NCBI GenBank assembly: GCA_963765495.1
Contig: CAVXWP010000001.1
Coordinates: 591,898 to 655,897 of the forward strand
Direction: 5' to 3'
Source: Blastocatellia bacterium
Lineage (GTDB): Bacteria; Acidobacteriota; Blastocatellia; UBA7656
DNA: 64,000 nucleotides
The notes below the pieces were generated by a model. That model did not search any database. It saw only the letters and a program-made list of their open reading frames with translations, and had not been told where the DNA came from. Position 1 is the first letter of the stretch. Each line of letters starts with the position of its first letter. Made by a program: the position numbers and the translations under genes. Positions 1 to 14,868 of this stretch are shown here, in pieces.

Positions 1-824
1 AGAAAGGTTTTGCCGACGATAACCTCGTCACCATTCTGGAGCATGTGCCGTTTACCGGGCAGCAACCTCCGGCCGCGATTGACGAACGTGCCGTTGGTCG
101 AGCCCAGGTCTTCGATGAAGTACTGCCCGTTATGATTGATGATGCGCGCGTGACGCCTGGAAATCTTCGCCTCCGGGTCGTCCTCGTCAAGGTCAACGTC
201 GGGGAAGATCCCGCTGTCGGCGTCCCATCGCCCGATATTTGTCTCTATGCCGGTGATGGGAAATTCTCTGCCTATGCGACCGCCCCGCTCGATCATCAGC
301 TTTGCGGTCACGCGCGGATTTGCCGACTGATGAGACTGCTGATTTTCAGAGCGCAATCCATCGGTCGCTCCGCGCCCCGACAGCACATAGGTCTGCGCCG
401 AGCCTGCCGCGTTCGCCTCCGGCAGTTTCGGTTCGTTCGGCACGCGGTAATGATCCGGTCTGTTCGGGCGCGGCGCGGACCGCTCTTCCACATCATTACG
501 GCGGTCACGTAGAAAACGAGGCTCTATATTGTCTGCCCCTTCTTCTTCGACTCTTTCCGGCGGCCTTTGATCTCTCGCAGGCATGGCCGGTTTCGGTATG
601 CTCGTAGAGGTGGTAAACGACGGCGGAGTGGGCGGCGGCCCCTCTATGGTCCTTGATGACAGATGATCATTTTGCACGGCGCTCGGCGGCTGATAGATAG
701 GCGGTTCGACACTATCACGAATATTGGGCGCGGGCGGCGGATTAGCTTCCAGTCTCATGCCGCACTCGTCACAATATTCGCTGCCGTCAATATTTTCTGT
801 TCTACAGTTATTGCACCTGATCAT
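1..824 (-). CDS. FHA domain protein with N-terminal zinc-ribbon (C-terminus runs past the window start)
   Basis: Minus-strand frame from ATG at 824: MIRCNNCRTENIDGSEYCDECGM (CxxC..CxxC ribbon), Pro-rich linker, then FHA motif INHNGQYFIEDLGSTNGTFVNRGRRLLPGKRHMLQNGDEVIVGKTF reaching position 1. The ORF track misses it because no stop falls in the window. Continuity of the middle part was judged by eye only. Confidence 0.6.
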   Translation of the reverse strand, partial: MIRCNNCRTENIDGSEYCDECGMRLEANPPPAPNIRDSVEPPIYQPPSAVQNDHLSSRTIEGPPPTPPSFTTSTSIPKPAMPARDQRPPERVEEEGADNIEPRFLRDRRNDVEERSAPRPNRPDHYRVPNEPKLPEANAAGSAQTYVLSGRGATDGLRSENQQSHQSANPRVTAKLMIERGGRIGREFPITGIETNIGRWDADSGIFPDVDLDEDDPEAKISRRHARIINHNGQYFIEDLGSTNGTFVNRGRRLLPGKRHMLQNGDEVIVGKTF

Positions 825-883
825 TTGGCTGGGCCTCCGACCGCTACCGTTACCCAACAGATCCTCTACCGGCAGCAAACTAG

Positions 884-913
884 ATTATACTTCACACTTC
901 CAGGCGGTCGCAA
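884..913 (-). promoter_or_regulatory. sigma70-like promoter for the FHA gene (TTGCGA-18-TATAAT on minus strand)
   Basis: Reverse complement of 884-913 reads TTGCGA, 18 nt, TATAAT, about 55 nt upstream of the ATG at 824. Confidence 0.35.
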
Positions 914-1126
914 TTCTTTGATTCGGATGGGCCTGTGCCCAAAGACGGCTCGGGTTCACGTCCCTAAAGCCTCGACACTAACGCTACGACGCAAAAGCGA
1001 CGCCCTCAAGCGCTCAACGAGCGCGGCAACCTCGGTGATCGGAAACTTTTTCGGTAAAGGCTTCGCTAGTATTTAATCTCTATCTCAGGATAAAGGATAT
1101 GAATGGCCTCACCGTGTCATGCCGCC

Positions 1127-1210
1127 CAATCGGTTCCCCCAATCGGTTCCCCCAATCGGTTCCCCCAATCGGTTCTCCCAATCCGTTTCCCCAATCCGTT
1201 CGCCCCCAAT
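1127..1210. repeat. 13-bp tandem repeat CAATCGGTTCCCC, about 6 copies (last copies degenerate)
   Basis: Direct read: caatcggttcccc x4, then caatcggttctcc, caatccgtttcccc, aatccgttcgccccc. Intergenic, between the sat 3' end and the FHA gene promoter. Confidence 0.85.
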
Positions 1211-1254
1211 ATATGATTACCCGAACCATTTTTCAACCCCTGATCGGAGACTGT

Positions 1255-2418
1255 TCATTTTGCGCCCCGACTCATGGCCTCGATCAATATCGCCGCAACC
1301 TCCGGGCGCGAGAATTCACCGGGCGGCATTTCGCCCCCGGCGAGCATTTCGCGCACCTTCGTGCCCGAAAGCGCGACGTGCTCGCTTGAGTCGTGAGGAC
1401 AGGTCTTATTGGAGGCCATAGCTTCACAACGTCTACAGAAAAAGGAGTGATCAAAAAAAATGGGCGTGATCCCGAGCGCCTCGGGGTCGAATTCATTGAA
1501 GATGTAGTGCGCATCATAAGTGCCGTAATAGTTGCCCACTCCGGCGTGATCGCGCCCTACGATGAAATGCGTGCAGCCGTAATTCTTACGGATTATCGCG
1601 TGAAAGACCGCCTCGCGCGGCCCCGCGTACCGCATGGCCGCAGGGTTGACGGCAAGCAGCGTCCTCGTCTTCGGAAAATAATTTTCGAGCATCGCTTCAT
1701 AGCAGCGCATTCGTATGTCGGGCGGTATGTCATCGGACTTCGTTTCGCCAACGAGCGGGTGCAGCAAAAGACCGTCTACGGTTTCAAGCGCGCACTTGAT
1801 GATATATTCGTGTGCGCGGTGAATCGGATTGCGAGTTTGGAAGGCGACCACGCGATGCCATCCTTTCTTCTTGAAAGTCTCGCGTGTTTGAACCGGGTCC
1901 AGGCGATGGGCGGGGAAGGCCGGATTGCGCGGGCGGTTGAGCAGACTGATCGGTCCGCCCAGCAAATAATCCCCCCTGTCGTAAAGGGCACGCACGCCCG
2001 GATGCGCAAGGTCCGTGGTCAGATAGACGCGCTCGGCTTCTCGCTGTTTGTCGTAAGTGTATTTCTGTCTGAGGTGAAGCACGCCAAGCGGATGATCTTC
2101 GTCGCCGTAAAGCGCGATATCGGAGCCTTCCTCCAGATCGCCTGCAAAATCCTCTGAGGCCGCGAGCGTGACCGGAATCGTCCAGGGCAGCCCCGAAGCC
2201 AGGTGCTTGTTGCCCCTGACCGCGACGTAATCGTCTTCACACATAAAGCCTTCAAGCGGGCTAAATGCGCCGTTGGCGATCATTTCAAGGTCAGAGACCT
2301 CGCGGTGTCGCAAATTGATGCGCGGCATCGCGGGGACCCTTTCAAGAAGCGTCTCGCGTTCGACGCCCGTGAGTTCGCGGTTTATAAGCTGACCGCCGTG
2401 TGCAGGTATTGTTTCCAT
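1255..2418 (-). CDS. sat: sulfate adenylyltransferase (ATP sulfurylase)
   Basis: [11 protein letters not shown] and GRDHAG motifs. Likely start is METIPAHGG at 2418 with AGGA RBS; the track start at 2493 is probably an overextension. Confidence 0.85.
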
Positions 2419-2592
2419 ATCTATTATTCCTCGCTGAATTTCAAAACTATAAACAAACTTCGAACGATACGTGACCGCTATGGAGGCTGTCAACGCGGTG
2501 GCCAGTGATCACTGAGCAGTGGTCGGTGGCCGGTAATAAGGAGTTGCGGCATCAGATCGGCCCCGGAGAGACGTAGATGCGCCGACCGCTGC

Positions 2593-3273
2593 TCAACCTA
2601 TGAATTTATAACCGAGCCCGTGAATTGTGAGAATGAATTGAGGATGGCGGGGATTTGGTTCTAGTTTCTGGCGAAGCCATGCCACGTGTACATCAACCGT
2701 TCGGGTCGAGGGCATGGCATTGTAGCCCCACACTTCGTTCAGCAATTCGTCACGCGAAAGCGTGCTGCCTCTATGATCTATAAAGTAGCGAAGCAATTGA
2801 AACTCGCGGGCGGATAAATCGACTGCCGCACCATTGCAAGTGACTTCGGCGCGGCGAAAATCCACCCGCACAGGCCCGAACTGATAGGCAGTTTGAGGAT
2901 AAACGGTTGCCACGGGTGCGCGACGCAACAGCGCTTCTATTCGCGCAAGCAATTCAATGGTCTCGAAGGGCTTGGTTAAATAATCATCAGCACCCAGTTT
3001 CAAACCCACCACTTTATCTACGACCTGCCCGCGAGCCGTGAGCATGATGAGGGGCGTCTCTATGCCGCGCTGTCGCAAGTCTCTGCATACATCGAACCCG
3101 TTTTTACGCGGAAGCATAACGTCGAGGATGATCAAATCAAACGACTCGGCAGACGCTCTCTCAAACCCGGTCTCACCGTCCCCGGCCGTCTCGACCTTAT
3201 AGCCTTCGCTCGTCAGCCGGTCGCTCAACGTAAGAACCAGTCCCGGCTCATCTTCTATCAATAAAATTCGCAT
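2593..3273 (-). CDS. OmpR/PhoB-family response regulator (receiver plus winged helix)
   Basis: MRILLIEDEPGLV...DVMLP...K receiver and C-terminal wHTH (LTIHGLGYKF). The track N-terminal extension to 3327 (MPVSESRITHHDSRISFN) is encoded by the palindromic repeat and is rejected. Confidence 0.85.
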   Translation of the reverse strand: MRILLIEDEPGLVLTLSDRLTSEGYKVETAGDGETGFERASAESFDLIILDVMLPRKNGFDVCRDLRQRGIETPLIMLTARGQVVDKVVGLKLGADDYLTKPFETIELLARIEALLRRAPVATVYPQTAYQFGPVRVDFRRAEVTCNGAAVDLSAREFQLLRYFIDHRGSTLSRDELLNEVWGYNAMPSTRTVDVHVAWLRQKLEPNPRHPQFILTIHGLGYKFIG

Positions 3274-3284
3274 ATTGAAAGAGA

Positions 3285-3393
3285 TGCGTGAATCGTGATG
3301 CGTGATGCGTGATTCCGAGACAGGCAATTATCTGTAACAAGTCTTCTGCCTCAAAGTCATGTATCACGATTCACGCATCACGATTCACGCGTC
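3285..3393. repeat. heptamer-tandem palindromic element (GCGTGAT type) between the HK and RR cistrons
   Basis: Left arm gatgcgtgaatcgtgatgcgtgatgcgtgattc, about 45 nt loop, right arm gtatcacgattcacgcatcacgattcacgcgtc (imperfect inverse). Confidence 0.75.
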
Positions 3394-5355
3394 GCGCATC
3401 ATTATCAGTGCTTCATCGCTGGCCTCGGTCGCCTGAGCTACAGCGGGCAGGCGCAAAGTGAAGGCGCTTCCACGTCCGGGCGCGCTTTCTACATCCACGC
3501 TTCCGCCGTGGGCATCAATTATGTGTTTTACCAGGCTCAACCCCAGGCCGTTCCCATGAATCTGGGCCGAGGCGGCCTCGCGGCCCCGATAAAACGGTTC
3601 AAAGATGTGAGGCAAATCCGAAGCCGTTATTCCCATTCCACGGTCTTCGATTGTGATTTCGACTTCCAGACCGCGTCTGCCCTGAACCGATTTCGCTCCA
3701 ATCCTTATCAAACGGCTTTCGCCCGCGTATTTCATGGCGTTGTTGAGCAGGTTTTGAATCGCTCGCAGAAGCGCCGCCCTGTCGGCTAAAACCGGAGGCA
3801 GATTCATCTCGATCTCTTTTTCCACATCGAAACCGCCTTCGCTTATCTGCATACGGCAATCGGCGAGCGCCGCGTCGATCAGGTCATTTGCGTCTGTCGG
3901 ATACAGATCATAAGTCTTCTGGCCCGATTGCGCGCCCGCAAAATCGAGCACCTGCTCGACCATCTTCGCAAGCCTCTGCCCTTCGCCCTTTATCAACGCG
4001 CCGTATCGTTTGATCTGCGCCCGGTCGTCGATCACCCCGTCGGCCAGATTTTCGCCCGCCGAACAGATAACGGCGAGCGGGGTCCGCAACTCGTGCGATA
4101 CGCCCGCGACAAATTCAATCTGCTGTCTTGCCAACCGCTGTGCGCGCCGCGTCGAGATTATTATCATCGCTACGCTCACCGCCAGCAGCAAAAGTATGCC
4201 GAAGCTCACGATCAAATTTCGATGACGCACGCCCGCGACCGCCAGATCGAGCGAGCCCGCGCGATGCTTTATCACAAGCTGCCAGACGCCGTCTTTATTC
4301 CCTGTAAGAGAGCCTTTCGCGGACGTCTCTCCCGGCGATTCACTGCGAATGCTGAACGTCATAATCTGCGACCTGTGCTCGCCCGCCGCCGCCGTTTCTC
4401 CGCGCATTCCCATCTCCGGCAACAGATCGCTGAACTCTTCGAACCTCAATCCGAAAAGCCCCGCCGTCTGGTCGCCCGCGACGGCTTCTTCATCAGAGAT
4501 CTTCGCATCGGATCTGTATATGATCTTCTTCGGGTCTTCGCGTTCCACAATCGCCACGTTGTAATCGACTGTATCGCCGCTTGCGAAGTACCTCCGGGCA
4601 AGCAGGGGAAGAAACTCCTGTTTTATGTAATCGAGATCGAGCGTGATAATGTTGTGGCCGGTGAGCGGGGCTATCTCGGGCAACCCCGCGCTTTCGCGAC
4701 TTTCGACGCGAGCGGTAAAGGTCTTTCTCTCCTTTTCGATGAAGCGATATTTCGGGAGCACGACGAAAGCCTTATCGGTCTTCTCTACAAGACGGTCGCC
4801 TGTAATCATTCGAAGTCCGAGTATGGGTGTGACGATGGCGGGCACATCTTCGGCTATAGTATTCAGGAGGTTTCGCGCAAGCATTGCCGGTTCGGGAAGT
4901 TCAGCCCGCTTCATATCGGCAAACGAGTCGCGCAGGGTCAGGAGTTCCGGCGGCCACTCGCGCGGCTTGAGCATAGCCTGCGCCCTGTCGAATTCGAGCA
5001 ATCGAGGCCCGCTCTTGTCGTCCTCTTCAACTACGAATACGCCTTTGACAAGCCTGGGATAAGGCGCGGTTTGAAACCACCTGTCATAACGTTTCGAATA
5101 ATCATCCCATCGGTTATCGCGCAAGTCGGCCGCATCCATCTGCAAACTCAAATATGCGCGGGCAAGTTCGCGGTCAAAATCGCGGCTGAATTGCGTAGCC
5201 CCGGCGCTGAGACTCTCCTGCATCCGCTCGCGCTCTGCCCGGCTGACCTGCCCGAGCCATCGGTATTGCAGGGTCGCAAACAGCGCGAGCAACAATACGA
5301 GCGAGGCGGCAAGCACAAGGGTCAGAGGCGGGCGTTTTTTCAACAGCTTCTTCAC
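3385..5355 (-). CDS. sensor histidine kinase with large N-terminal extracytoplasmic domain
   Basis: H-box AGVSHELRTPLAVI, N/G-box ...LLNNAMKYA...DRGMGI...GLGLSLV; N-terminal TM segment; GTG start. Confidence 0.85.
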   Translation of the reverse strand: MKKLLKKRPPLTLVLAASLVLLLALFATLQYRWLGQVSRAERERMQESLSAGATQFSRDFDRELARAYLSLQMDAADLRDNRWDDYSKRYDRWFQTAPYPRLVKGVFVVEEDDKSGPRLLEFDRAQAMLKPREWPPELLTLRDSFADMKRAELPEPAMLARNLLNTIAEDVPAIVTPILGLRMITGDRLVEKTDKAFVVLPKYRFIEKERKTFTARVESRESAGLPEIAPLTGHNIITLDLDYIKQEFLPLLARRYFASGDTVDYNVAIVEREDPKKIIYRSDAKISDEEAVAGDQTAGLFGLRFEEFSDLLPEMGMRGETAAAGEHRSQIMTFSIRSESPGETSAKGSLTGNKDGVWQLVIKHRAGSLDLAVAGVRHRNLIVSFGILLLLAVSVAMIIISTRRAQRLARQQIEFVAGVSHELRTPLAVICSAGENLADGVIDDRAQIKRYGALIKGEGQRLAKMVEQVLDFAGAQSGQKTYDLYPTDANDLIDAALADCRMQISEGGFDVEKEIEMNLPPVLADRAALLRAIQNLLNNAMKYAGESRLIRIGAKSVQGRRGLEVEITIEDRGMGITASDLPHIFEPFYRGREAASAQIHGNGLGLSLVKHIIDAHGGSVDVESAPGRGSAFTLRLPAVAQATEASDEALIMMRDA

Positions 5356-5405
5356 AACGGCGATTATAGCATCACTATTACGCCGCCGGATGGGGCGGCA
5401 AAAAA

Positions 5406-5424
5406 TTTTACATCCTTAACAATT
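5406..5424 (-). promoter_or_regulatory. conserved upstream motif TTGTTAAGGATGTAAAA (minus strand), followed by extended -10 TGCTATAAT at 5363-5371
   Basis: A near-identical motif and TGCTATAAT recur upstream of the phospholipid operon (9576-9594 / 9538-9546). Confidence 0.4.
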
Positions 5425-5522
5425 ACGTGAAGCGTGAAGCGTGATTCATGACTTCAGGTGGCAGGATTAAACCAACTTGCAAGCCTCGTAAATCACGAAT
5501 CACGCTTCACGCTTCACGCTTT
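5425..5522. repeat. heptamer-tandem palindromic element (GTGAAGC variant)
   Basis: acgtgaagcgtgaagcgtgattc ... aatcacgaatcacgcttcacgcttcacgct, lying in the divergent region between HK and terC. Confidence 0.75.
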
Positions 5523-5574
5523 TGATGGTTGCTGATTCTTTTGGCACACGACTTGATGACACTTAATCATCGTA

Positions 5575-6495
5575 GTGGCAGATTACTCAATAAATCACAT
5601 TCCGATATGGATATGGGCGATATTTGGCGTGCTGATTCTGATCCTGCTCGTGATTGATCTTGTCGCGCATCGGGACGATCATGCCACGTCGCGCAAGAGT
5701 GCCATCATCTGGAGCATAATCTGGATCGCGTCGGGGCTTGCCTTCAATGTCTTCGTATATAATATGTTCGGCGGTCGAGCCGGGCAGCAATATCTGGCCG
5801 CTTATCTGATCGAAAAGAGCCTGAGCCTCGATAATCTTTTCGTATTCCTGATAGTCTTTCGGGGGCTCAACACGCCCGAGAAGCATCAGCACAGGGTGTT
5901 GTTCTGGGGCATCTTTGGCGCGCTCGTTTTTCGCGGCCTCTTCATATTCGCGGGCGCTGTGGCCATCGAGCGATGGCAGTGGGTCTCTTACATCTTTGGC
6001 GCGCTTCTTTTATACGGCGCTTACAGCGCGCTTCGTAAAGACCCCGCTCGCGAGCGAAAAAGCGAGGTGGTCGAGTGGCTCTCAAACCATCTGCCCGTCA
6101 CCGAAAAAGTTCAAGATACAAAATTCTTCTCAATTGAAAACGGGAAGCATGTGGCCACGCCGCTCTTTGTCGCTCTGGTTGCGATTGAATTGACCGACAT
6201 CGCCTTCGCCATAGATTCGGTCCCGGCGGCCTTCTCGATGAGCCACAGCCGATTCATACTCTATAGCTCAAACGTCTTTGCGATACTCGGACTGCGCGCT
6301 CTTTACATCACGTTGGCGCATTCTTTAGCCAGACTCAAATACCTGCGTTACGGGCTGGCCGGAGTGCTCGCGTTTGCGGGCTTCAAGCTGATCGCCGATC
6401 AGTGGATAGAGATCCACACGCTCGTTTCAGTAGGAGTTATCGTGCTGATGATAGGTTTATCGGTCTGGGCGAGCCTCGGCGAGAAAAAGATGTAG
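5575..6495 (+). CDS. TerC/Alx family integral membrane protein
   Basis: Multi-TM protein with the LSLDNLFVF motif typical of TerC; GTG start. Confidence 0.8.
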   Translation: MADYSINHIPIWIWAIFGVLILILLVIDLVAHRDDHATSRKSAIIWSIIWIASGLAFNVFVYNMFGGRAGQQYLAAYLIEKSLSLDNLFVFLIVFRGLNTPEKHQHRVLFWGIFGALVFRGLFIFAGAVAIERWQWVSYIFGALLLYGAYSALRKDPARERKSEVVEWLSNHLPVTEKVQDTKFFSIENGKHVATPLFVALVAIELTDIAFAIDSVPAAFSMSHSRFILYSSNVFAILGLRALYITLAHSLARLKYLRYGLAGVLAFAGFKLIADQWIEIHTLVSVGVIVLMIGLSVWASLGEKKM

Positions 6496-6699
6496 GGCAT
6501 TAAGAAGCGGCTTATTATTCCAGAAAATTACCTCTTCACCTTGTCGATATGAGATTTCACACCTCAAATCACAGATTAGCCGACACGAGAAAAACTATGT
6601 ATTCAGACTCTTCTTTTACTGTGGTACACTCTGCGTTGATATTGGCCTCGGTCGAAGTTTCAAAACACATAAGCGCTTAAAGTTTGCCAGGAGACCTGA

Positions 6700-7068
6700 G
6701 TGGAAAAAATTAAAAAGCGCATCCTTTACGTAGACGATGATATAGAGTCTTGCCGTGTGCTTGCGCAACTTCTGACCATCTGGGGATATGAAGTTGAGAT
6801 CGCCCAATCCTTCGCCGACGGATTGAATTTAGTCACAAGCAAAAGCTTTGACCTCTACATTCTGGACAACTGGTTCAAGGATGGAAGCGGCATCAAGCTG
6901 TGCGAGACGATTCGCATATCCGATCAGGAGACGCCCGTTATTTTCCTCTCGGCCGCCGTTTACGAATCCGATCATCGGGCCGGAATGGATGCGGGAGCCC
7001 AGTTCTACTTCAACAAACCTGTCGAGATAAAAAAGCTGGAAGAGGTGCTGGCGCAGTTGTTTAATTAA
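6700..7068 (+). CDS. single-domain response regulator (CheY-like receiver)
   Basis: ILYVDDD...DLYILDNWF...GIKLC...PVIFLSA receiver signature; no output domain. Confidence 0.75.
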   Translation: MEKIKKRILYVDDDIESCRVLAQLLTIWGYEVEIAQSFADGLNLVTSKSFDLYILDNWFKDGSGIKLCETIRISDQETPVIFLSAAVYESDHRAGMDAGAQFYFNKPVEIKKLEEVLAQLFN

Positions 7069-7137
7069 CGGCTATTCAATCCCTTTAATTCTGTAAATCT
7101 TCTTTATCCTGTCCGATTCTTTCTCGCTCTTCACCCG

Positions 7138-7833
7138 TCACGCATGTTCGTTTAATTCACGCACAGCCGTTTCAAGTGATCCTATGATCTGTTGGCGGTT
7201 TCCCGTAATCAGTCGAGGCGCGCCGAGGCGGACTTCGCAGAAAAAGGGCACAGGAATATATTCACCCTTCGGCAGGCTCCGCCCCATATTCACGAGGTAG
7301 GCGGGTACGACCGGCACATCGGGCATCTTTTCAAGCAGATGAGCTATGCCGGAGCGAAATTGCCCTACGGCTTCGCCCGACCCGCGCGTCCCTTCGGGAA
7401 ATATGATCAGAGATTGCCCCGCTTCGAGCGCCTCCTGCATGAAGTGAATCGGGTTGCTTTCGGAGGTTATCTTTTTTCTTGCGATGGGCAATATGTTGAA
7501 GAGGGTTTTCGTAAAGATTGAGACCAGCCTGTTGCGCTCGAAGTAATCTGCTGCCGCCACGGGGCGTATATTGCGCAGCCGCCTGAGAGGGAAAAGACTC
7601 AAAAGCGAGATGGTATCGAGATGGCTTGAATGATTCGCAATCAGAATGAATGGATCAGACCCCGGCAGGTGTTCGCGTCCTCGCACGCGCAGCCCGATAA
7701 AGAGCGCCATAAACGACCTTACAAGTGCCGCGAAGAAAATCATCTGTACGATGTTTGCCACAGCGCCGTGCCCGATTGTCCGTTCCGATTTCGCTTCCTT
7801 CTCATCCTTCATCATTTGCTTCCCTCTCTGCAC
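7138..7833 (-). CDS. plsC: 1-acyl-sn-glycerol-3-phosphate acyltransferase (PlsC-like)
   Basis: HX4D motif IANHSSHLDT and FPEGTRG motif; the true start may be an internal Met (MMKDEK). Confidence 0.75.
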   Translation of the reverse strand: MQRGKQMMKDEKEAKSERTIGHGAVANIVQMIFFAALVRSFMALFIGLRVRGREHLPGSDPFILIANHSSHLDTISLLSLFPLRRLRNIRPVAAADYFERNRLVSIFTKTLFNILPIARKKITSESNPIHFMQEALEAGQSLIIFPEGTRGSGEAVGQFRSGIAHLLEKMPDVPVVPAYLVNMGRSLPKGEYIPVPFFCEVRLGAPRLITGNRQQIIGSLETAVRELNEHA

Positions 7834-7845
7834 AGTGTTGCCGCC

Positions 7846-8787
7846 TTAATAGTGGTAATAACGAATATAGTGAAAGAAGAGCGGCGCGGCGTAGCAGAGC
7901 GAATCCACCCGGTCGAGCATGCCGCCGTGGCCCGGGATTATGCCCCCGAAATCCTTTACGCCAAAATCCCGTTTGACCGCGCTCATCACAGCGCCCCCGC
8001 AGAAACCCGCGACCGTTATCAAAAGCGATACACCCATGGTTTCCGGCACGGAAAACGGCGTAAGAAAGCGTATCGCGAGGCTCAGGCATATGGCGCTTGC
8101 GATGCCGCCTATAAACCCTTCCCACGTTTTATTAGGGCTGATGGCCGGGATGATCTTATGGCGTCCGAGGGTCTTGCCCCAGATGTATTGCAGCACATCG
8201 CTTATCTCTACGACGAAGACCAGAAATAGCAGAAGCGTGCGCCCGTTTGCGTCGTGACCTTCGATTACGGGGAGCGTGAGCAGGAACCCGAGATGGCTAA
8301 GTCCATAAACAAACGCCATCAGCCCCCACTGTATCTGCGACACAGAGGCCACAAACCCGACCGTGTCCTTTGACAGCATCAGCCGCACCGGCAGGATCAG
8401 GAACATGTATACGGGGATGAAGATTATAAACATCCCGTACCAGGGGATGGCGATCCAGAAATACTGAATCGGGATGGCCAGAAAGGTGATCACAAGGGTC
8501 TTGTGATCAGCCGGGCGCGTCTTGAGTAATGTGATGTACTCTTTCATCGCCCAGAAACTGAGGAATGTAAAGAAGATGAGCGACACGATGTTATTGACTA
8601 CGACCGCGCAGAAGAAAACCGCAGCCATCAGCCACCACGAATTCACGCGAGCCGACAGTTCCTTGTAATCACTCCGCGGGCGCGCCAGCCGGAGTATGGC
8701 CACGAGGACAGAAGCTACAACCAGCACGGTCAGAACCAGCAGGGCCATTCGCCAGACCGGGGGGAGATCGGTCACACTCATTGGCAT
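7846..8787 (-). CDS. cdsA: phosphatidate cytidylyltransferase
   Basis: C-terminal CdsA signature GGIIPGHGGMLDRVDSLCYAAPLFFHY; multi-TM. Confidence 0.85.
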   Translation of the reverse strand: MPMSVTDLPPVWRMALLVLTVLVVASVLVAILRLARPRSDYKELSARVNSWWLMAAVFFCAVVVNNIVSLIFFTFLSFWAMKEYITLLKTRPADHKTLVITFLAIPIQYFWIAIPWYGMFIIFIPVYMFLILPVRLMLSKDTVGFVASVSQIQWGLMAFVYGLSHLGFLLTLPVIEGHDANGRTLLLFLVFVVEISDVLQYIWGKTLGRHKIIPAISPNKTWEGFIGGIASAICLSLAIRFLTPFSVPETMGVSLLITVAGFCGGAVMSAVKRDFGVKDFGGIIPGHGGMLDRVDSLCYAAPLFFHYIRYYHY

Positions 8788-8805
8788 TCTCAGATCAACC
8801 TTTCA

Positions 8806-9429
8806 TCAATTTCGCCCGGCATTCAACGGCAATTCCGCGAGCGCCTTCGAAATTCTATTCCAGCAGGTGAGAACGGTAAGCAGCGCGACAATGCCGAAGA
8901 CCCAGGGCCAGAGCCTGAATGCGCCCGGTACGATAGCGGTGAGGACGCCGAGCGCGCCCACGATTAGCGCGCGGTCGCTCTTACCCATAGGCCCTTCATA
9001 GTGGCGGCTTGCGCCAAGTGCGCGACCGAGCACACCGCAAAACTCCGTCAGCAGCGCCCCGATTGAAAATGCCACAACCGGCCATAGCGCCTCTTCGTAG
9101 AGAAGGGCGAGCGGGAGATAAAGCCCGAGGTCCGAGACAGCATCGCCAAGCTCATTCAACACGGCGCCGAGCGTTGAGGCCATATGGAGTTCGCGCGCCA
9201 TCATACCGTCTATGGCGTTCAAGGCCATGCGCGCAAAAAGCCACACGGGCAACAGGAGAAGTAGCGCAGGCCGGGTTCTGGCTTGCGATACAATCGCGCC
9301 TACGATTATTGACCCCGTGATGGCGATCAGGGTGATTGCGTTCGGAGTGAATCTCAAACCTGCGAGCCTTTTCATCAGCGGTCTGAGCAGGGATTGAAAT
9401 TTCGGTTTCAGATCGTAAACAGACGGCAT
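8806..9429 (-). CDS. CDP-alcohol phosphatidyltransferase (PgsA/Pss-like)
   Basis: DGMMARELHMASTLGAVLNELGDAVSD matches D-G-x2-A-R-x8-G-x3-D-x3-D. It is first in the operon with cdsA and plsC. Confidence 0.75.
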   Translation of the reverse strand: MPSVYDLKPKFQSLLRPLMKRLAGLRFTPNAITLIAITGSIIVGAIVSQARTRPALLLLLPVWLFARMALNAIDGMMARELHMASTLGAVLNELGDAVSDLGLYLPLALLYEEALWPVVAFSIGALLTEFCGVLGRALGASRHYEGPMGKSDRALIVGALGVLTAIVPGAFRLWPWVFGIVALLTVLTCWNRISKALAELPLNAGRN

Positions 9430-9575
9430 TTGCCTCTCTATTGTTGTCCTTAGCTTTGTGAGTGCTCTGAGGCTTTCAAGAACCTGCTGCCGGGGCCTGT
9501 GTCAGTGTTTGTCGATAGCCTCAAACCGCGTCGCCGGATTATAGCATAGAGGGGCTATAAGAACGCGAAGCAACT

Positions 9576-9594
9576 TTTTACATTCTTAACAAAA
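9576..9594 (-). promoter_or_regulatory. second copy of TTGTTAAGAATGTAAAA motif, followed by TGCTATAAT at 9538-9546
   Basis: Near-identical to the site upstream of the HK-RR operon. Confidence 0.4.
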
Positions 9595-9667
9595 TCCTTT
9601 CATCGTCTTAACCACCTGGGCCCGCTTTTCAGCCATAATCCTTTCAGAACATGTGACAGGAGAAAAT

Positions 9668-11182
<1,515 letters not shown>

Positions 11183-11215
11183 ATGTTGTTTCAACAAAAC
11201 AGGAGGTTACTTTTG

Positions 11216-12115
11216 ATGAAGAGATTGGCATTACTGATTTTTGGATTCGTATTGTTAACGGCGACAGCAAACGGAGCCGATGAAAAATCTCGCGCCGAAG
11301 AGATACTCAATCAGACAAGGCAGGCCCTAGGCGGCGCCTCAAAGCTCAACGCAATCCACGCCCTCACGGCCTCGCTCGAATTCCGCCGCGTAATCGAGAT
11401 GAAAGACGAGTCGGGCTCCAGCCAGACTATGGACCAGTCGGGAGACATGGATCTCGATCTGCTTCTGCCCGACAAATACATGAGATCAGAGACTACTAAC
11501 CTGATGGGAGACGCTCGCGTGACGATCATTCGCGCTGTCAACGGAGACCAGACGTGGTCAGACACGCGCACGAGCGGGCCGGGCATGATCATCGTTCGTG
11601 AGGCGAAACCGCAGGGCGCAAACAGCGCAAACGCCGGTCTGCGAGGAGAGTTTTATCGCTATCTGGTCGCGTGGCTTCTCGCCGCGCCTGCCTCAGAACA
11701 ACTCGAATACAGCTACGCCGGGCAGGCCGAAGCCGACGACGGCAGCGCCGACGTGATAGACGTGAAGGGAGCGGATGGGTTTTCGCTCCGCCTCTTCCTC
11801 GACAGCCAGACGCATCTGCCGCTGATGTTGAGTTACAAGACACAAAGACCTCGCGGAGGGCGAATGATAAACCGTCGCATGACGCGCGAGCCTATGAGCG
11901 AAGAAAGAATAGCTAAAGAACATCAGGAGGGACCCGAGCCTGAAATGGTCGAAGCGGAAATTCAGGAGCGGTTCTCTGATTACCGCAAGGTAGACGGGCT
12001 GATGCTGCCCCATCACATCTCAAGAGCCACCGACGGCAAGACCGATGAAGAGTGGGAGATCAAACAATTCAAGATCAACCCCGACCTCAAACCCGAAAAG
12101 TTTGTGAAGAAGTAA
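11216..12115 (+). CDS. hypothetical exported protein (possible LolA-like fold)
   Basis: Signal peptide MKRLALLIFGFVLLTATANG; AGGAGG RBS 9 nt upstream. Confidence 0.5.
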   Translation: MKRLALLIFGFVLLTATANGADEKSRAEEILNQTRQALGGASKLNAIHALTASLEFRRVIEMKDESGSSQTMDQSGDMDLDLLLPDKYMRSETTNLMGDARVTIIRAVNGDQTWSDTRTSGPGMIIVREAKPQGANSANAGLRGEFYRYLVAWLLAAPASEQLEYSYAGQAEADDGSADVIDVKGADGFSLRLFLDSQTHLPLMLSYKTQRPRGGRMINRRMTREPMSEERIAKEHQEGPEPEMVEAEIQERFSDYRKVDGLMLPHHISRATDGKTDEEWEIKQFKINPDLKPEKFVKK

Positions 12116-12210
12116 CACGTGATGCGTGATGCGTGATGCGTGACCGGAAGCACCCGGCCCATCGAAGCCCGGTTGTAACTCTCACACATCACGTATCACG
12201 CATCACGTCC
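12115..12210. repeat. heptamer-tandem palindromic element (GCGTGAT x3)
   Basis: acacgtgatgcgtgatgcgtgatgcgtgac ... cacacatcacgtatcacgcatcacgtcc. It overlaps the false 5' extension of the downstream ORF. Confidence 0.75.
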
Positions 12211-12222
12211 ACAGGAGTTATT

Positions 12223-14868
12223 ATGCAAAGACGGTTATCTTTTATCCGGTTGCTCAGCCTGATTCTCGTTCTCGCGTCCGTATTCAATCAGGCGTGGTCG
12301 CAGACCCGAACCCTCGATGGAAATTTGAGAGTCAGGGCGATTGATCCGCTAGGCGCGGCACTCGACCGGGCTCGCGTAAGAGTGGTGTCGGCCGAAGGGC
12401 GCGAAGAGGCGAGTGAAACCAATCAGAAAGGCGAGGCTTTCTTTCAAAAGCTTGCGCCCGGCCGGTACAAAATTATGGCCGAGGCCGACGGGTTCGAACC
12501 TGTACAGGTGAGCGATGTTACCGTAAAAGCAGGCAACAATCAGTTCGAGATTCGGCTTGAGGTGGCTCACGTAAAAGAAGAGATGGCCGTCTCTCGCGAC
12601 AACCGCGAAAAGCAGACCGACCCCAACGGCAACGCATTCTCGACCATTCTGACAGAAGATGATATTGCCAATCTGCCCGATGACCCGGAGGAGCTTTCAG
12701 CCGCCTTGCGCGATATGGCCGGACCGGGCGCAGGACCTCGGGACCCAACCATTCGTATCAATGGGTTTCGCGGAGGCAAGCTGCCTCCCAAGTCTCAGAT
12801 ACGCGAAATCCGATTTCGCATGAACCCCTACTCCGCCGAAAATCACGATGCCGATTTAGTAAGCATAGACGTATTCACAAAACCGGGAGTTGACCTCTGG
12901 CACGGCAATATGAATTTCGCCTTCAGAGACGAGTCCTTTAACGCGCGCAATCCTTTTGCCCCTTTTCGCGGACCTGAGCAAAATCGGCGCTACGGTTTTG
13001 ATCTTGGCGGGCCGCTCTGGCGCAACCACACATCGCTGTTTGTGAATGTCGAAGGGACATCTCTTTATGATTCCCAGACGATAGTGGCTGCGCTGCCCGA
13101 GGGCAATTTTTCAGACCTTATCCGCCGCCCCTCGCGCTCGCTTGACGGTTCGGCCCGAGTCGAGCACGCGCTGACAAAGACGCACAACCTGATGGTCGAA
13201 TATCAGCGCAACGCTCGTTTGCAAGAGAATCTCGGCGTAGGCGATTTCGACCTCGCCGACCGCGCTTACTCGACCGATGTGGTTGAAAATATTTTTCGCC
13301 TGTCCGATTCCGGTTTGCTCTCAAAGAGGATGATAAACGATTTCCGGTTTCAGGCTCGATGGCAGAGCCTCGATTCGCATTCGGCCACGAGTGCGCCCGC
13401 CATACTAGTGCTCGACGCCTTCAACCGAGGCGGCGCGCAGATAGAAAATCGTCGCCGCACGCGTGAGCTCGAACTTGCCGATAATGTCAACTTCGCCTCC
13501 GGCAAACATTCCATGAAGGCGGGCGCTTTGCTTGAAGCCGCAGGTTACACGAGCCGCGACCTTCAAAACACGGGCGGCACTTTCACATTCGCGAGCCTTG
13601 AAGATTTTCGCCTGGGTCGCCCGACCACTTTCACCGAGCGAGCCGGAGAGGCCGATGTGTCGTATTCCCAGTATCAGTTCGGCTGGTTCTTTCAAGACGA
13701 CTGGAAGCTGACCAAAGGTCTGACCCTGAGCCTGGGGCTCCGCCACGAAGTCCAGAACCATCTGGGCGATCGCAACAATTTTTCGCCGCGAATCGGGGTG
13801 GCGTGGTCTCCGTTCAAGAACGGGCAGACGACTTTTCGCGCGGGCGCAGGCGTATTTTACGACTGGTTTGCCGCCGAGACTTTCGAGCAGACCCTTCGCG
13901 TAGACGGCAAGCGCCAGCAGGAGATCGTCGTTCGCAATCCCGGGTTTCCCGATCCGTTTGGCGGCGGCGATTCGATAACGCTTCCGCCCGGTCGAATCAT
14001 GAGCGCGCCCGATCTCAAACTTCCCGCCGTTGAGCAGGCATCATTTATGGTAGAGCGCAGGCTGACAAAGACTCTGATGCTCAGAAGCGGCTACACCTAT
14101 CAATCGGGCGTAAATCTGCTGCGCGGCCACAACATCAACGCGCCGATTCCCGGGCTTGGGCGGCCCGACCCGACGGCGGGAAATATCATTCAGATAGAGT
14201 CAACGGCCCGGTCTACGCTGCACATGTTCAACGTAGGCGTGAGTCGCCTGACCAGAGGGTTCCATTTTAATTTGAACTATTCGCTATCGAAGGCTACAAA
14301 CGAGGCGGATTCGCCGCTTGCCTTGCCCGCAGACAATTTCGATCTGCGAGCCGAGCGCGGCCCCGCCCCCTGGGATGCGCGCCATCGCCTTTTCGGATTG
14401 GTGACCGCAAATCTTATAAAGGGATTCCGGCTGGGAGCTACGTTTACCGCGCGCTCGGCCACGCCTTACGACATCACAACCGGCTTTGACGACAACGGCG
14501 ACAGCGTAAGCAACGACCGGCCCGAGGGAGTTACGCGCAACAGCGCGCGGGGCTCTGCCCGGTGGGATATGGGAGCGCGTTTGAGCTGGGGGTTTGGTTT
14601 TGGCAAGCGGCCCGATACGGGAGCGCGTGGCGGGCGGCCAAAAATGATTCGCATACGTGACGGGGATGACGCGCTCGGCATGGTCAGTGGCGACCCGCAA
14701 GCGGTCGATAAGCGATGGCGCATGGATTTTTATATACAGGCCAACAATCTGTTCAATCACACAAACCTGATGAATTTCACCGGGGTAGAGACCTCGCCCT
14801 TCTTTGGGCAGGCGATTGCAGCCGCGCCCGGGCGCAGGATCGAAACCGGAATGAAGTTCAGCTTCTAG
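12223..14868 (+). CDS. TonB-dependent receptor-like outer-membrane protein with carboxypeptidase-regulatory-like N-domain
   Basis: Signal peptide MQRRLSFIRLLSLILVLASVF after AGGAG RBS; CarbopepD_reg-like domain; C-terminal ...GMKFSF beta-barrel terminus. The track start at 12133 is rejected as repeat-encoded. Confidence 0.8.
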   Translation: MQRRLSFIRLLSLILVLASVFNQAWSQTRTLDGNLRVRAIDPLGAALDRARVRVVSAEGREEASETNQKGEAFFQKLAPGRYKIMAEADGFEPVQVSDVTVKAGNNQFEIRLEVAHVKEEMAVSRDNREKQTDPNGNAFSTILTEDDIANLPDDPEELSAALRDMAGPGAGPRDPTIRINGFRGGKLPPKSQIREIRFRMNPYSAENHDADLVSIDVFTKPGVDLWHGNMNFAFRDESFNARNPFAPFRGPEQNRRYGFDLGGPLWRNHTSLFVNVEGTSLYDSQTIVAALPEGNFSDLIRRPSRSLDGSARVEHALTKTHNLMVEYQRNARLQENLGVGDFDLADRAYSTDVVENIFRLSDSGLLSKRMINDFRFQARWQSLDSHSATSAPAILVLDAFNRGGAQIENRRRTRELELADNVNFASGKHSMKAGALLEAAGYTSRDLQNTGGTFTFASLEDFRLGRPTTFTERAGEADVSYSQYQFGWFFQDDWKLTKGLTLSLGLRHEVQNHLGDRNNFSPRIGVAWSPFKNGQTTFRAGAGVFYDWFAAETFEQTLRVDGKRQQEIVVRNPGFPDPFGGGDSITLPPGRIMSAPDLKLPAVEQASFMVERRLTKTLMLRSGYTYQSGVNLLRGHNINAPIPGLGRPDPTAGNIIQIESTARSTLHMFNVGVSRLTRGFHFNLNYSLSKATNEADSPLALPADNFDLRAERGPAPWDARHRLFGLVTANLIKGFRLGATFTARSATPYDITTGFDDNGDSVSNDRPEGVTRNSARGSARWDMGARLSWGFGFGKRPDTGARGGRPKMIRIRDGDDALGMVSGDPQAVDKRWRMDFYIQANNLFNHTNLMNFTGVETSPFFGQAIAAAPGRRIETGMKFSF

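Follow-up and report, generated by a model that had tools for sequence, protein, structure and literature searches.

A conserved direct-repeat operator probably serving an Acidobacteriota two-component system and a divergent hydrolase/LolA-like operon

Promoters served by activators of the OmpR/PhoB family classically have no -35 element, the repeat bound by the regulator standing in that position beside a weak -10 box, and the Cpx box is of the GTAAA type. The WalR/VicR (YycF) box of Firmicutes reads TGTWAH-N5-TGTWAH (PMC4168254), while the direct-repeat operators of ArcA in Escherichia coli hold two to four ATGTTAAAAA repeats, 11 bp centre to centre, in arrays at 11 or 22 bp (PMC4173790, PMC3798270). 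Here we describe an operator of four direct repeats in a 64,000-nt stretch of a Blastocatellia genome (hereafter the window), where one copy precedes the operon of a sensor histidine kinase and an OmpR/PhoB-family response regulator and a second copy lies between an operon for phospholipid synthesis and a divergent operon for a hydrolase and a LolA-like protein. We hold, with a probability of about 0.75, that this is the conserved operator of the two-component system, the first copy serving autoregulation and the second the hydrolase/LolA-like operon. A literature search found no paper on this two-component system, which is uncharacterised and widespread in Acidobacteriota.

The 17-nt motif TTGTTAAGRATGTAAAA, which an earlier note on this DNA had reported upstream of both the kinase and the lipid operon, is indeed shared by the two: it occurs twice on the minus strand, at 5406-5422 and 9576-9592. 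These copies (TTGTTAAGGATGTAAAA and TTGTTAAGAATGTAAAA) are the sole matches in the window at up to two mismatches, against a shuffle expectation of 0.01, and none of 100 shuffles of the window gave two or more matches. The genome-wide search that the note had proposed, made over the 7.3-Mb assembly (17 contigs), returned these two exact copies only. A weight matrix built from orthologous sites scores them at 33.8 (5406-5422) and 32.1 bits (9576-9592), the next-best position in the genome reaching 21.8; this gap of at least 10 bits, together with the two exact copies in 7.3 Mb, amounts to uniqueness and is counted in favour of a dedicated operator. Both copies are followed by the identical 11-mer ATGCTATAATC, an extended -10 box (TGnTATAAT), again as the note had said, but the distance from motif to TGC, given there as a common 30-35 nt, differs between the two: the kinase promoter has 34 nt, the lipid promoter 29 nt. 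The 11-mer occurs five times in the genome and is also the -10 of lipid-operon orthologues that have no motif, so that nothing about regulation can be read from the shared -10 by itself. No -35 match lies 16-18 nt from TGCTATAAT at either promoter and neither appears in a -35/-10 promoter scan; both are predicted extended -10 promoters. An Rfam scan of positions 1-14000 (E up to 1) found no RNA family, and thus gives no reason to read the region as a riboswitch or small RNA.

Two simpler accounts of the motif were rejected. The two promoter regions align at the motif and the -10 only, with unrelated spacers between them, and the -10 is the lipid operon's own, which dismisses a recent promoter duplication. 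Neither TTGTTA nor TTTACA within the motif can serve as a -35 element, since neither direction shows a conserved -10 at a distance of 16-18 nt.

The 17-mer is real, but at the second site it is only half of what is conserved: the full element is 40 nt long, TGGTTAAG-N5-GnAAAGAnTT-TGTTAAGGATGTAAAA, of which the 17-mer forms the promoter-proximal half. Four direct KGTWAAR repeats (DR1 to DR4) lie at offsets 0, 11, 22 and 31, and the high-information proximal half has the DR3-DR4 core TGTTAAG-N2-TGTAAAA. From 36 distinct full operators we obtain the consensus TGGTTAAG-N5-GnAAAGAgtTTGTTAAGgATGTAAAAt, with 1.2-1.9 bits at most repeat positions, and with a matrix made from 15 orthologous operators the element at 9575-9614 is the sole strong full-length match in the genome. 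DR1 and DR2 are 11 bp apart, as are DR2 and DR3, and the best-conserved pair, DR3-DR4, keeps 9 bp in every lineage. It resembles the direct-repeat sites of OmpR/PhoB-family regulators, as the note had said.

Conservation of the site reaches well beyond this genome. Kinase orthologues in other genera are 37-58% identical, yet wTGTTAAGrwTGTAAAAT precedes their TGnTATAAT by about 35 nt. When 40 relatives were scanned with a 16-mer pattern, one to three sites turned up in most genomes with the kinase and almost none in those without it (far fewer matches came from a reversed-pattern control), and after looser matrix scans the site is present in 15/15 relatives having the kinase promoter on a contig. 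Absence from orthologous promoters, which the note had named as a refutation, was not observed at any kinase orthologue with upstream DNA available. The motif also occurs in Pyrinomonadaceae, in Vicinamibacterales and in families coded f10, f51, f54 and f90; exact copies in other Acidobacteriota families stand in the same series of operator, 34-35 nt, a TGCTAGAAT-like box, a presumably leaderless ATG, kinase and regulator, the latter 69-74% identical. An alignment of 14 sequences of the 310-aa protein encoded by the LolA-like open reading frame (ORF) found 49 loci in Blastocatellia, Pyrinomonadaceae, Vicinamibacterales and other Acidobacteriota metagenome-assembled genomes. In their common layout, which is probably ancestral, the kinase and then the regulator are transcribed to one side of the operator and the 310-aa gene, sometimes followed by the hydrolase, to the other. 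A full-operator score was obtained in 27/49 loci, 100-300 nt upstream of the 310-aa gene, and Vicinamibacteria have divergent yet recognisable versions. One relative has the LolA-like gene with kinase, regulator and operator all absent. In another, a weak kinase match has no operator upstream and is probably a paralogue.

The operator is set at fixed distances from a -10 box on each side. Towards the kinase (rightward), TGnTAnnnT follows 34 nt away in 10 cases and 35 nt away in 11, all 21 of them kinase promoters; of the 22 extended -10 boxes linked to an operator, only that of the window's lipid promoter, at 29 nt, departs from this. The GTG start of the kinase at 5355 lies 7 nt past TATAAT, which suggests a leaderless kinase mRNA, and in most orthologous kinases an ATG, GTG or TTG is found 5-11 nt (mostly 6-9) past the -10. 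On the other side (leftward), a -10-like hexamer (nAtnAT) lies exactly 20 nt from the distal repeat CTTAACCA in the 36 full operators, the information content peaking at precisely those columns; examples are TATAGT, TAGCAT, GATGAT and, in the window, CATAAT, with a ribosome-binding site and ATG next.

The gene on the DR1 side of the operator, transcribed away from it, is recurrently a homologue of the 310-aa ORF or of the beta-lactamase-fold gene. In the window both are present. Hydrolase homologues adjoin the operator at four other loci, and the best NCBIfam models for the window's protein are AmpH and class C beta-lactamase, all below cut-off. Its start is likely the ATG at 9668, preceded by AGGAG (9658-9662), the longest-ORF start at 9653 being probably wrong; likewise, the LolA-like gene likely starts at 11216 rather than at 11183, giving 299 aa as in the public protein. 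This protein has no Pfam or NCBIfam match. Its AlphaFold2 model has a predicted local distance difference test (pLDDT) score of 88.8 and a predicted TM-score (pTM) of 0.84, and the top Foldseek matches, LolA3 9tp6 (6e-8), DUF1329 4z48, LolA-superfamily 3buu, LolA and RseB/MucB, have probability 1.0, E from 6e-8 to 2e-4 and TM-scores up to 0.59 on the target. On this model, it is a predicted LolA/RseB-fold periplasmic protein belonging to that superfamily, whose solved members show an open beta-barrel plugged by helices. LolA-like orthologues have the operator directly upstream, and operators left with the LolA-like gene after the kinase moved off have kept all 40 nt while losing the rightward -10, which means that the full operator is needed for the leftward promoter alone. 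Most likely, then, the second copy serves the oppositely transcribed hydrolase/LolA-like operon, with a presumed envelope role, and not the lipid operon.

That the operator belongs to the neighbouring regulator is suggested, indirectly, by covariation between the two. The recognition helix TRTVDVHVAWLRQK is invariant wherever the operator reads TGTTAAGGATGTAAAA, whereas one Vicinamibacteria clade with the operator TTGTTAT..GCAATC..TGTAAGAnATGTAAAG has the helix HVAGLRQ and an altered wing. No gene of the locus is better conserved than the regulator (66-79% identity across classes), whose closest solved structures are RegX3, RpaA, PhoP, MtrA, PrrA and KdpE. Autoregulation, which the note had offered as a possibility, becomes the best reading and appears well supported, because a repeat site resembling those of the OmpR/PhoB family lies in the promoter of the regulator's own operon at every orthologous locus with upstream DNA.

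In the mechanism that we propose, the phosphorylated regulator would bind the 40-nt operator, probably as two tandem dimers, and control two divergent promoters at fixed distances. Rightward, it would act on the kinase-regulator operon, whose extended -10 promoter has no -35; the operator would lie at about -50 to -66 of the predicted transcription start, and the mRNA would be leaderless. Leftward, it would act on the LolA/RseB-fold gene, often accompanied by the AmpH/class C-like hydrolase, with the distal repeat standing where a -35 would be and a weak -10 at 20 nt. The ancestral divergent region would have been split in this genome, so that the hydrolase/LolA-like operon keeps the full operator and the kinase operon the proximal half, with about 4.1 kb between the copies taken up by the lipid operon, the CheY-like gene, the TerC gene and a hairpin repeat. 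The lipid operon would have brought its own ATGCTATAATC promoter, now 29 nt from the operator and out of phase with the 34-35 nt seen elsewhere. Such separation is recurrent: in five other loci unrelated genes are inserted between a full and a half copy, and there, as in the window, the half-operator stays with the kinase and the full one with the LolA-like gene. A further locus has tandem operators 77 nt apart. Probably the operator was duplicated first and the copies were then pushed apart by insertion, of which the window would be a further case. At one of the split loci (G011) the gene adjoining the kinase-side copy may encode a VapC-like protein, judging by its C-terminus.

Several observations weigh against this scheme. 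The DR3-DR4 pair is spaced 9 bp centre to centre, as opposed to 11 bp in WalR/VicR and ArcA, so that the geometry is not the textbook one; the leftward -10 boxes are weak and were called by position only; and the covariation of helix and operator represents a single evolutionary event. Activation is preferred over repression solely for the lack of -35 elements. Some 20 LolA-like homologues in Pyrinomonadaceae have no operator and carry a GGAAC-type motif instead, which means that the partnership is not universal. Finally, the source genome is a metagenome assembly of an uncultured organism.

The note had gone on to propose that the regulator also controls the lipid operon through 9576-9592, and perhaps sat by read-through. 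We regard this as possible for the lipid operon of this genome, though without comparative support, and on the whole doubtful. The operator does lie 29 nt upstream of the lipid extended -10, in the same orientation as at kinase promoters; the lipid promoter has no -35, so an activator could benefit it; and the conserved targets, a LolA-fold protein and a penicillin-binding-protein (PBP)-like hydrolase, are envelope proteins, a theme that the lipid operon would fit. Yet the site is fully accounted for by the divergent promoter, the full operator being kept in every lineage even without rightward transcription, and at 29 nt the spacing differs by half a helical turn from the invariant 34-35 nt. 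Upstream regions of lipid-operon orthologues hold no operator in the relatives examined, two of which have the same ATGCTATAATC box in front of these genes, nor in 75/75 metagenomic loci (those with at least 150 nt in front of the transferase orthologue); no score there exceeds 14.3, the real sites having 32-34. A pattern scan of metagenome contigs for the operator 27-31 nt from TGCTATAAT gave no match, and ATGCTATAATC is the lipid operon's own. As for sat, it has its own consensus -35 promoter and ATG, and no sat homologue was present in any fetched locus with the regulator. The lipid operon thus appears to be a lineage-specific neighbour with an out-of-phase promoter. A bolder version, in which this single lineage would have placed an accessory inositol-phosphate-type lipid operon under an envelope-sensing system for signal-dependent lipid remodelling, seems to us rather unlikely, as does the more general idea that the invariant 9-bp spacing of the core pair, beside repeats phased at 11 bp, reflects a phylum-wide, non-canonical dimer geometry of an OmpR-family regulator.

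Autoregulation with activation of the divergent operon has also to be set against readings that leave the lipid genes aside. The operator might be a repressor site that shuts both promoters, as ArcA does at icdA: ArcA, with similar-looking repeats, is mainly a repressor using multi-repeat arrays (PMC4173790), the distal repeat overlaps the leftward -35 position, and the strong extended -10 boxes of the kinase promoters could be constitutive. This is unlikely, because a weak leftward -10 with no -35 is the usual signature of activator dependence, at the kinase promoter 34 nt separate the end of the operator from the TG motif downstream, so that all core elements are left free, and the strict helical phase kept with both -10 boxes points to contact with RNA polymerase and not occlusion. 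A different binding factor, or a general promoter element of the UP type or for an alternative sigma factor, would suit an A+T-rich motif at about -45 to -66, where UP elements sit, given that binding by the regulator is something we infer. Such an explanation is very unlikely in view of the distribution of the motif, with two copies in this genome and one to three in most kinase-bearing relatives, the high-scoring ones all adjoining the kinase or its partner genes; the motif is absent where the two-component system is absent and co-varies with the recognition helix, and 34 nt from a -10 is too far for a -35 element. It is barely credible that a repeat element or a local duplication left the two copies behind without function. 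One palindromic repeat family of the genome, made up of TGTTAATCC 9-mers and present in about 125 copies, does share TGTWAA-N3-TGTWAA, and a hairpin repeat abuts the kinase-side copy, but the family has TCC/TCT spacers, different flanks, many copies and a low operator-matrix score, whereas the operator is found at orthologous places in different classes although its flanking sequence is not conserved there. From motif to -10, moreover, the two window copies are too dissimilar for a recent duplication.

Features of the locus are collected in the table; the Pfam matches agree with the genes that the note had named (kinase, OmpR-type regulator, sat, CDP-alcohol phosphatidyltransferase, cdsA-like and plsC-like).

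Table. Positions in the window of the operator copies, promoter elements and genes discussed in the text.
Feature	Position	Strand	Basis or remark
sat	1255-2493 (longest ORF, TTG start)	-	Pfam
OmpR/PhoB-family response regulator	2593-3273 (longest ORF to 3327)	-	Pfam Response_reg 1.8e-28, Trans_reg_C 1.4e-27
Sensor histidine kinase	3385-5355	-	Pfam HisKA, HATPase_c
Extended -10 TGCTATAAT, kinase operon	5363-5371	-	34 nt past half-operator; read from sequence
17-mer copy TTGTTAAGGATGTAAAA	5406-5422	-	Kinase promoter
Proximal half-operator DR3-DR4 TTGTTAAGGATGTAAAA	5406-5422	-	33.8 of possible 34.8 bits
CGTGAnn-heptamer hairpin repeat, 94 nt	5426-5519	-	DNA fold -34 kcal/mol, z = -9.5
TerC gene	5575-6495	+	Pfam
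CheY-like gene	6700-7068	+	Pfam
Lipid operon, three genes	7138-9429	-	Pfam
PlsC-like acyltransferase	7138-7833	-	Pfam
CdsA-like cytidylyltransferase	7846-8787	-	Pfam
CDP-alcohol phosphatidyltransferase	8806-9429	-	Pfam
Extended -10 TGCTATAAT, lipid operon	9538-9546	-	29 nt downstream of operator; read from sequence
Full operator TGGTTAAGACGATGAAAGGATTTTGTTAAGAATGTAAAAA	9575-9614	-	57.9 bits; aligns column for column with 36 distinct orthologous operators
17-mer copy TTGTTAAGAATGTAAAA	9576-9592	-	Second copy
DR4	9576-9582	-	Direct repeat of full operator
DR3	9585-9591	-	Direct repeat of full operator
DR2	9596-9602	-	Direct repeat of full operator
DR1	9607-9613	-	Direct repeat of full operator
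Predicted -10 CATAAT	9634-9639	+	Leftward promoter; 20 nt from distal repeat TTAACC (9608-9613)
Hydrolase/LolA-like operon	9668-12115	+	Divergent from the 9575-9614 operator
Secreted beta-lactamase-fold serine hydrolase, AmpH/class C-like	9668-11182 (longest ORF 9653)	+	Pfam Beta-lactamase 5e-71
Secreted LolA/RseB-fold protein	11216-12115 (longest ORF 11183, 310 aa)	+	AlphaFold2, Foldseek

The kinase has transmembrane segments near residues 10-30 and 380-400 by hydropathy, and the periplasmic domain of about 350 aa between them has no Pfam match. Its AlphaFold2 model (pLDDT 74) gives weak Foldseek matches to dCache (E about 0.01), which make it weakly double-Cache-like and do not allow a signal to be named for the kinase. 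Among kinase orthologues LQYRWLGQVS, at residues about 28-40 right after the first transmembrane helix, is near-invariant across classes, against only 29-42% identity in the remainder of the periplasmic domain. The hairpin at the kinase promoter, which belongs to a CGTGAnn repeat family with further members elsewhere in the genome, ends 3 nt from the half-operator and stands in place of the distal half. A second CGTGAnn-armed hairpin (3290-3390) occupies the gap between kinase and regulator and gives the regulator a false N-terminal extension; the true start of the regulator is probably the ATG at 3273. The palindromic intergenic family is a separate one, with arms GACAGGATTAACAGGATT ... AATCCTGTTAATCCTGTC, tandem TGTTAATCC 9-mers and often outer arms of the CGTGA type (for example C1:784335-784395, C6:152858 and C9:589524; 250 arm matches at up to two mismatches). 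All 21 further TGTWAA-N3-TGTWAA sites in the genome belong to it and were rejected as operators.

The lipid operon is an accessory three-gene block, found in only 9/40 relatives, where it is conserved at 66-77% identity and never lies next to the operator, TerC, CheY, the hydrolase or the kinase. Its leader is about 100 nt long, and a Shine-Dalgarno sequence is present. For the transferase the nearest models are those for (archaetidyl)inositol-phosphate synthase and phosphatidylinositol-phosphate synthase, below cut-off, and the product of the operon may be an inositol-type phospholipid. At one locus a long TTTGTCA/TTTGCCA heptamer array with an inverted copy precedes the lipid-operon orthologue. 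For sat, the TTG of the longest ORF (2493) is itself the -35 hexamer of a TTGACA-18-TATCGT promoter, and the ATG at 2417, which follows GAGG, is the likely start. Upstream of operator-less LolA-like homologues, seven Pyrinomonadaceae loci carry a TGGAACTTT-type motif that looks like the -35 of an extracytoplasmic function (ECF) sigma factor, so the LolA-like family may be wired to either of two kinds of envelope-stress regulator. Elsewhere, one locus has a second divergent operator-like array, CGGTCAAATCGGTGTTAAGAGTTTGTAAAGTTTGTAAAG, about 150-330 nt to the left of its main operator and abutting the hydrolase gene; a TTTAAT box of its own follows after the usual 20 nt.

Acidobacteriota abound in soil, and hardly any of their regulons has been defined by experiment. 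For this phylum the data provide a precise 40-nt operator with its probable regulator and two promoters of fixed geometry, together with a conserved regulon of minimal size, in which the LolA/RseB-fold periplasmic protein usually has a PBP/AmpH-like hydrolase beside it. The regulon is well supported but ordinary, and its mechanism classical. Leaderless kinase mRNAs are predicted across several classes, and the locus illustrates how gene insertions could split a divergent control region while each side retains the part of the operator that it needs. The assignment of the lipid operon to the regulator, plausible but probably wrong, is corrected on the way.

Neither regulator nor kinase reaches an NCBIfam equivalog cut-off. 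The resemblance to WalR/VicR lies in the direct-repeat sites of an OmpR-family regulator, TGTTAA and TGTAAA both fitting TGTWAH, in the envelope-protein targets, and in the presence of YycF among the best NCBIfam matches of the regulator and of WalK among those of the kinase. The core pair, however, has a spacer of 3 nt (9 bp) where the WalR/VicR box has 5 nt (11 bp), there are four repeats instead of two, and the regulon is tiny, with two sites per genome; the regulator scores 200.2 bits against a cut-off of 340 for resp_reg_YycF and is not an equivalog, and the kinase, with its large periplasmic domain, is not built like WalK. With ArcA the operator shares the look of its repeats (ATGTTAAAAA against TTGTTAAGGA and ATGTAAAAT here), arrays of two to four repeats and cooperative occupancy by an OmpR-family protein. 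But ArcA needs 11 bp and tolerates no extra bp, where the core pair here has 9 bp, and it is a global repressor with hundreds of sites, whereas the operator described here is local and probably activating; the regulator is no equivalog of ArcA either, reaching 153 bits where the cut-off is 334. The leftward promoter recalls the class II promoters of PhoB and the pho box, having no -35, a repeat in its place and a weak -10, although the repeats face away from the activated gene, the nearest ends 20 nt from the -10 instead of about 10 nt, the half-site sequence is another one, and the regulator scores 192 against a cut-off of 296. Compared with cpxP-cpxRA of E. coli, an autoregulated envelope-stress system that likewise has a GTAAA-type box, the partner has a LolA/RseB fold and not the LTXXQ CpxP/Spy fold, the kinase gene precedes that of the regulator, the kinase mRNA is predicted to be leaderless, and the regulator scores 167 against the CpxR cut-off of 341. 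The arrangement is nevertheless the same in both, an operator in a short divergent region that separates the kinase/regulator operon from the gene of a secreted periplasmic protein.

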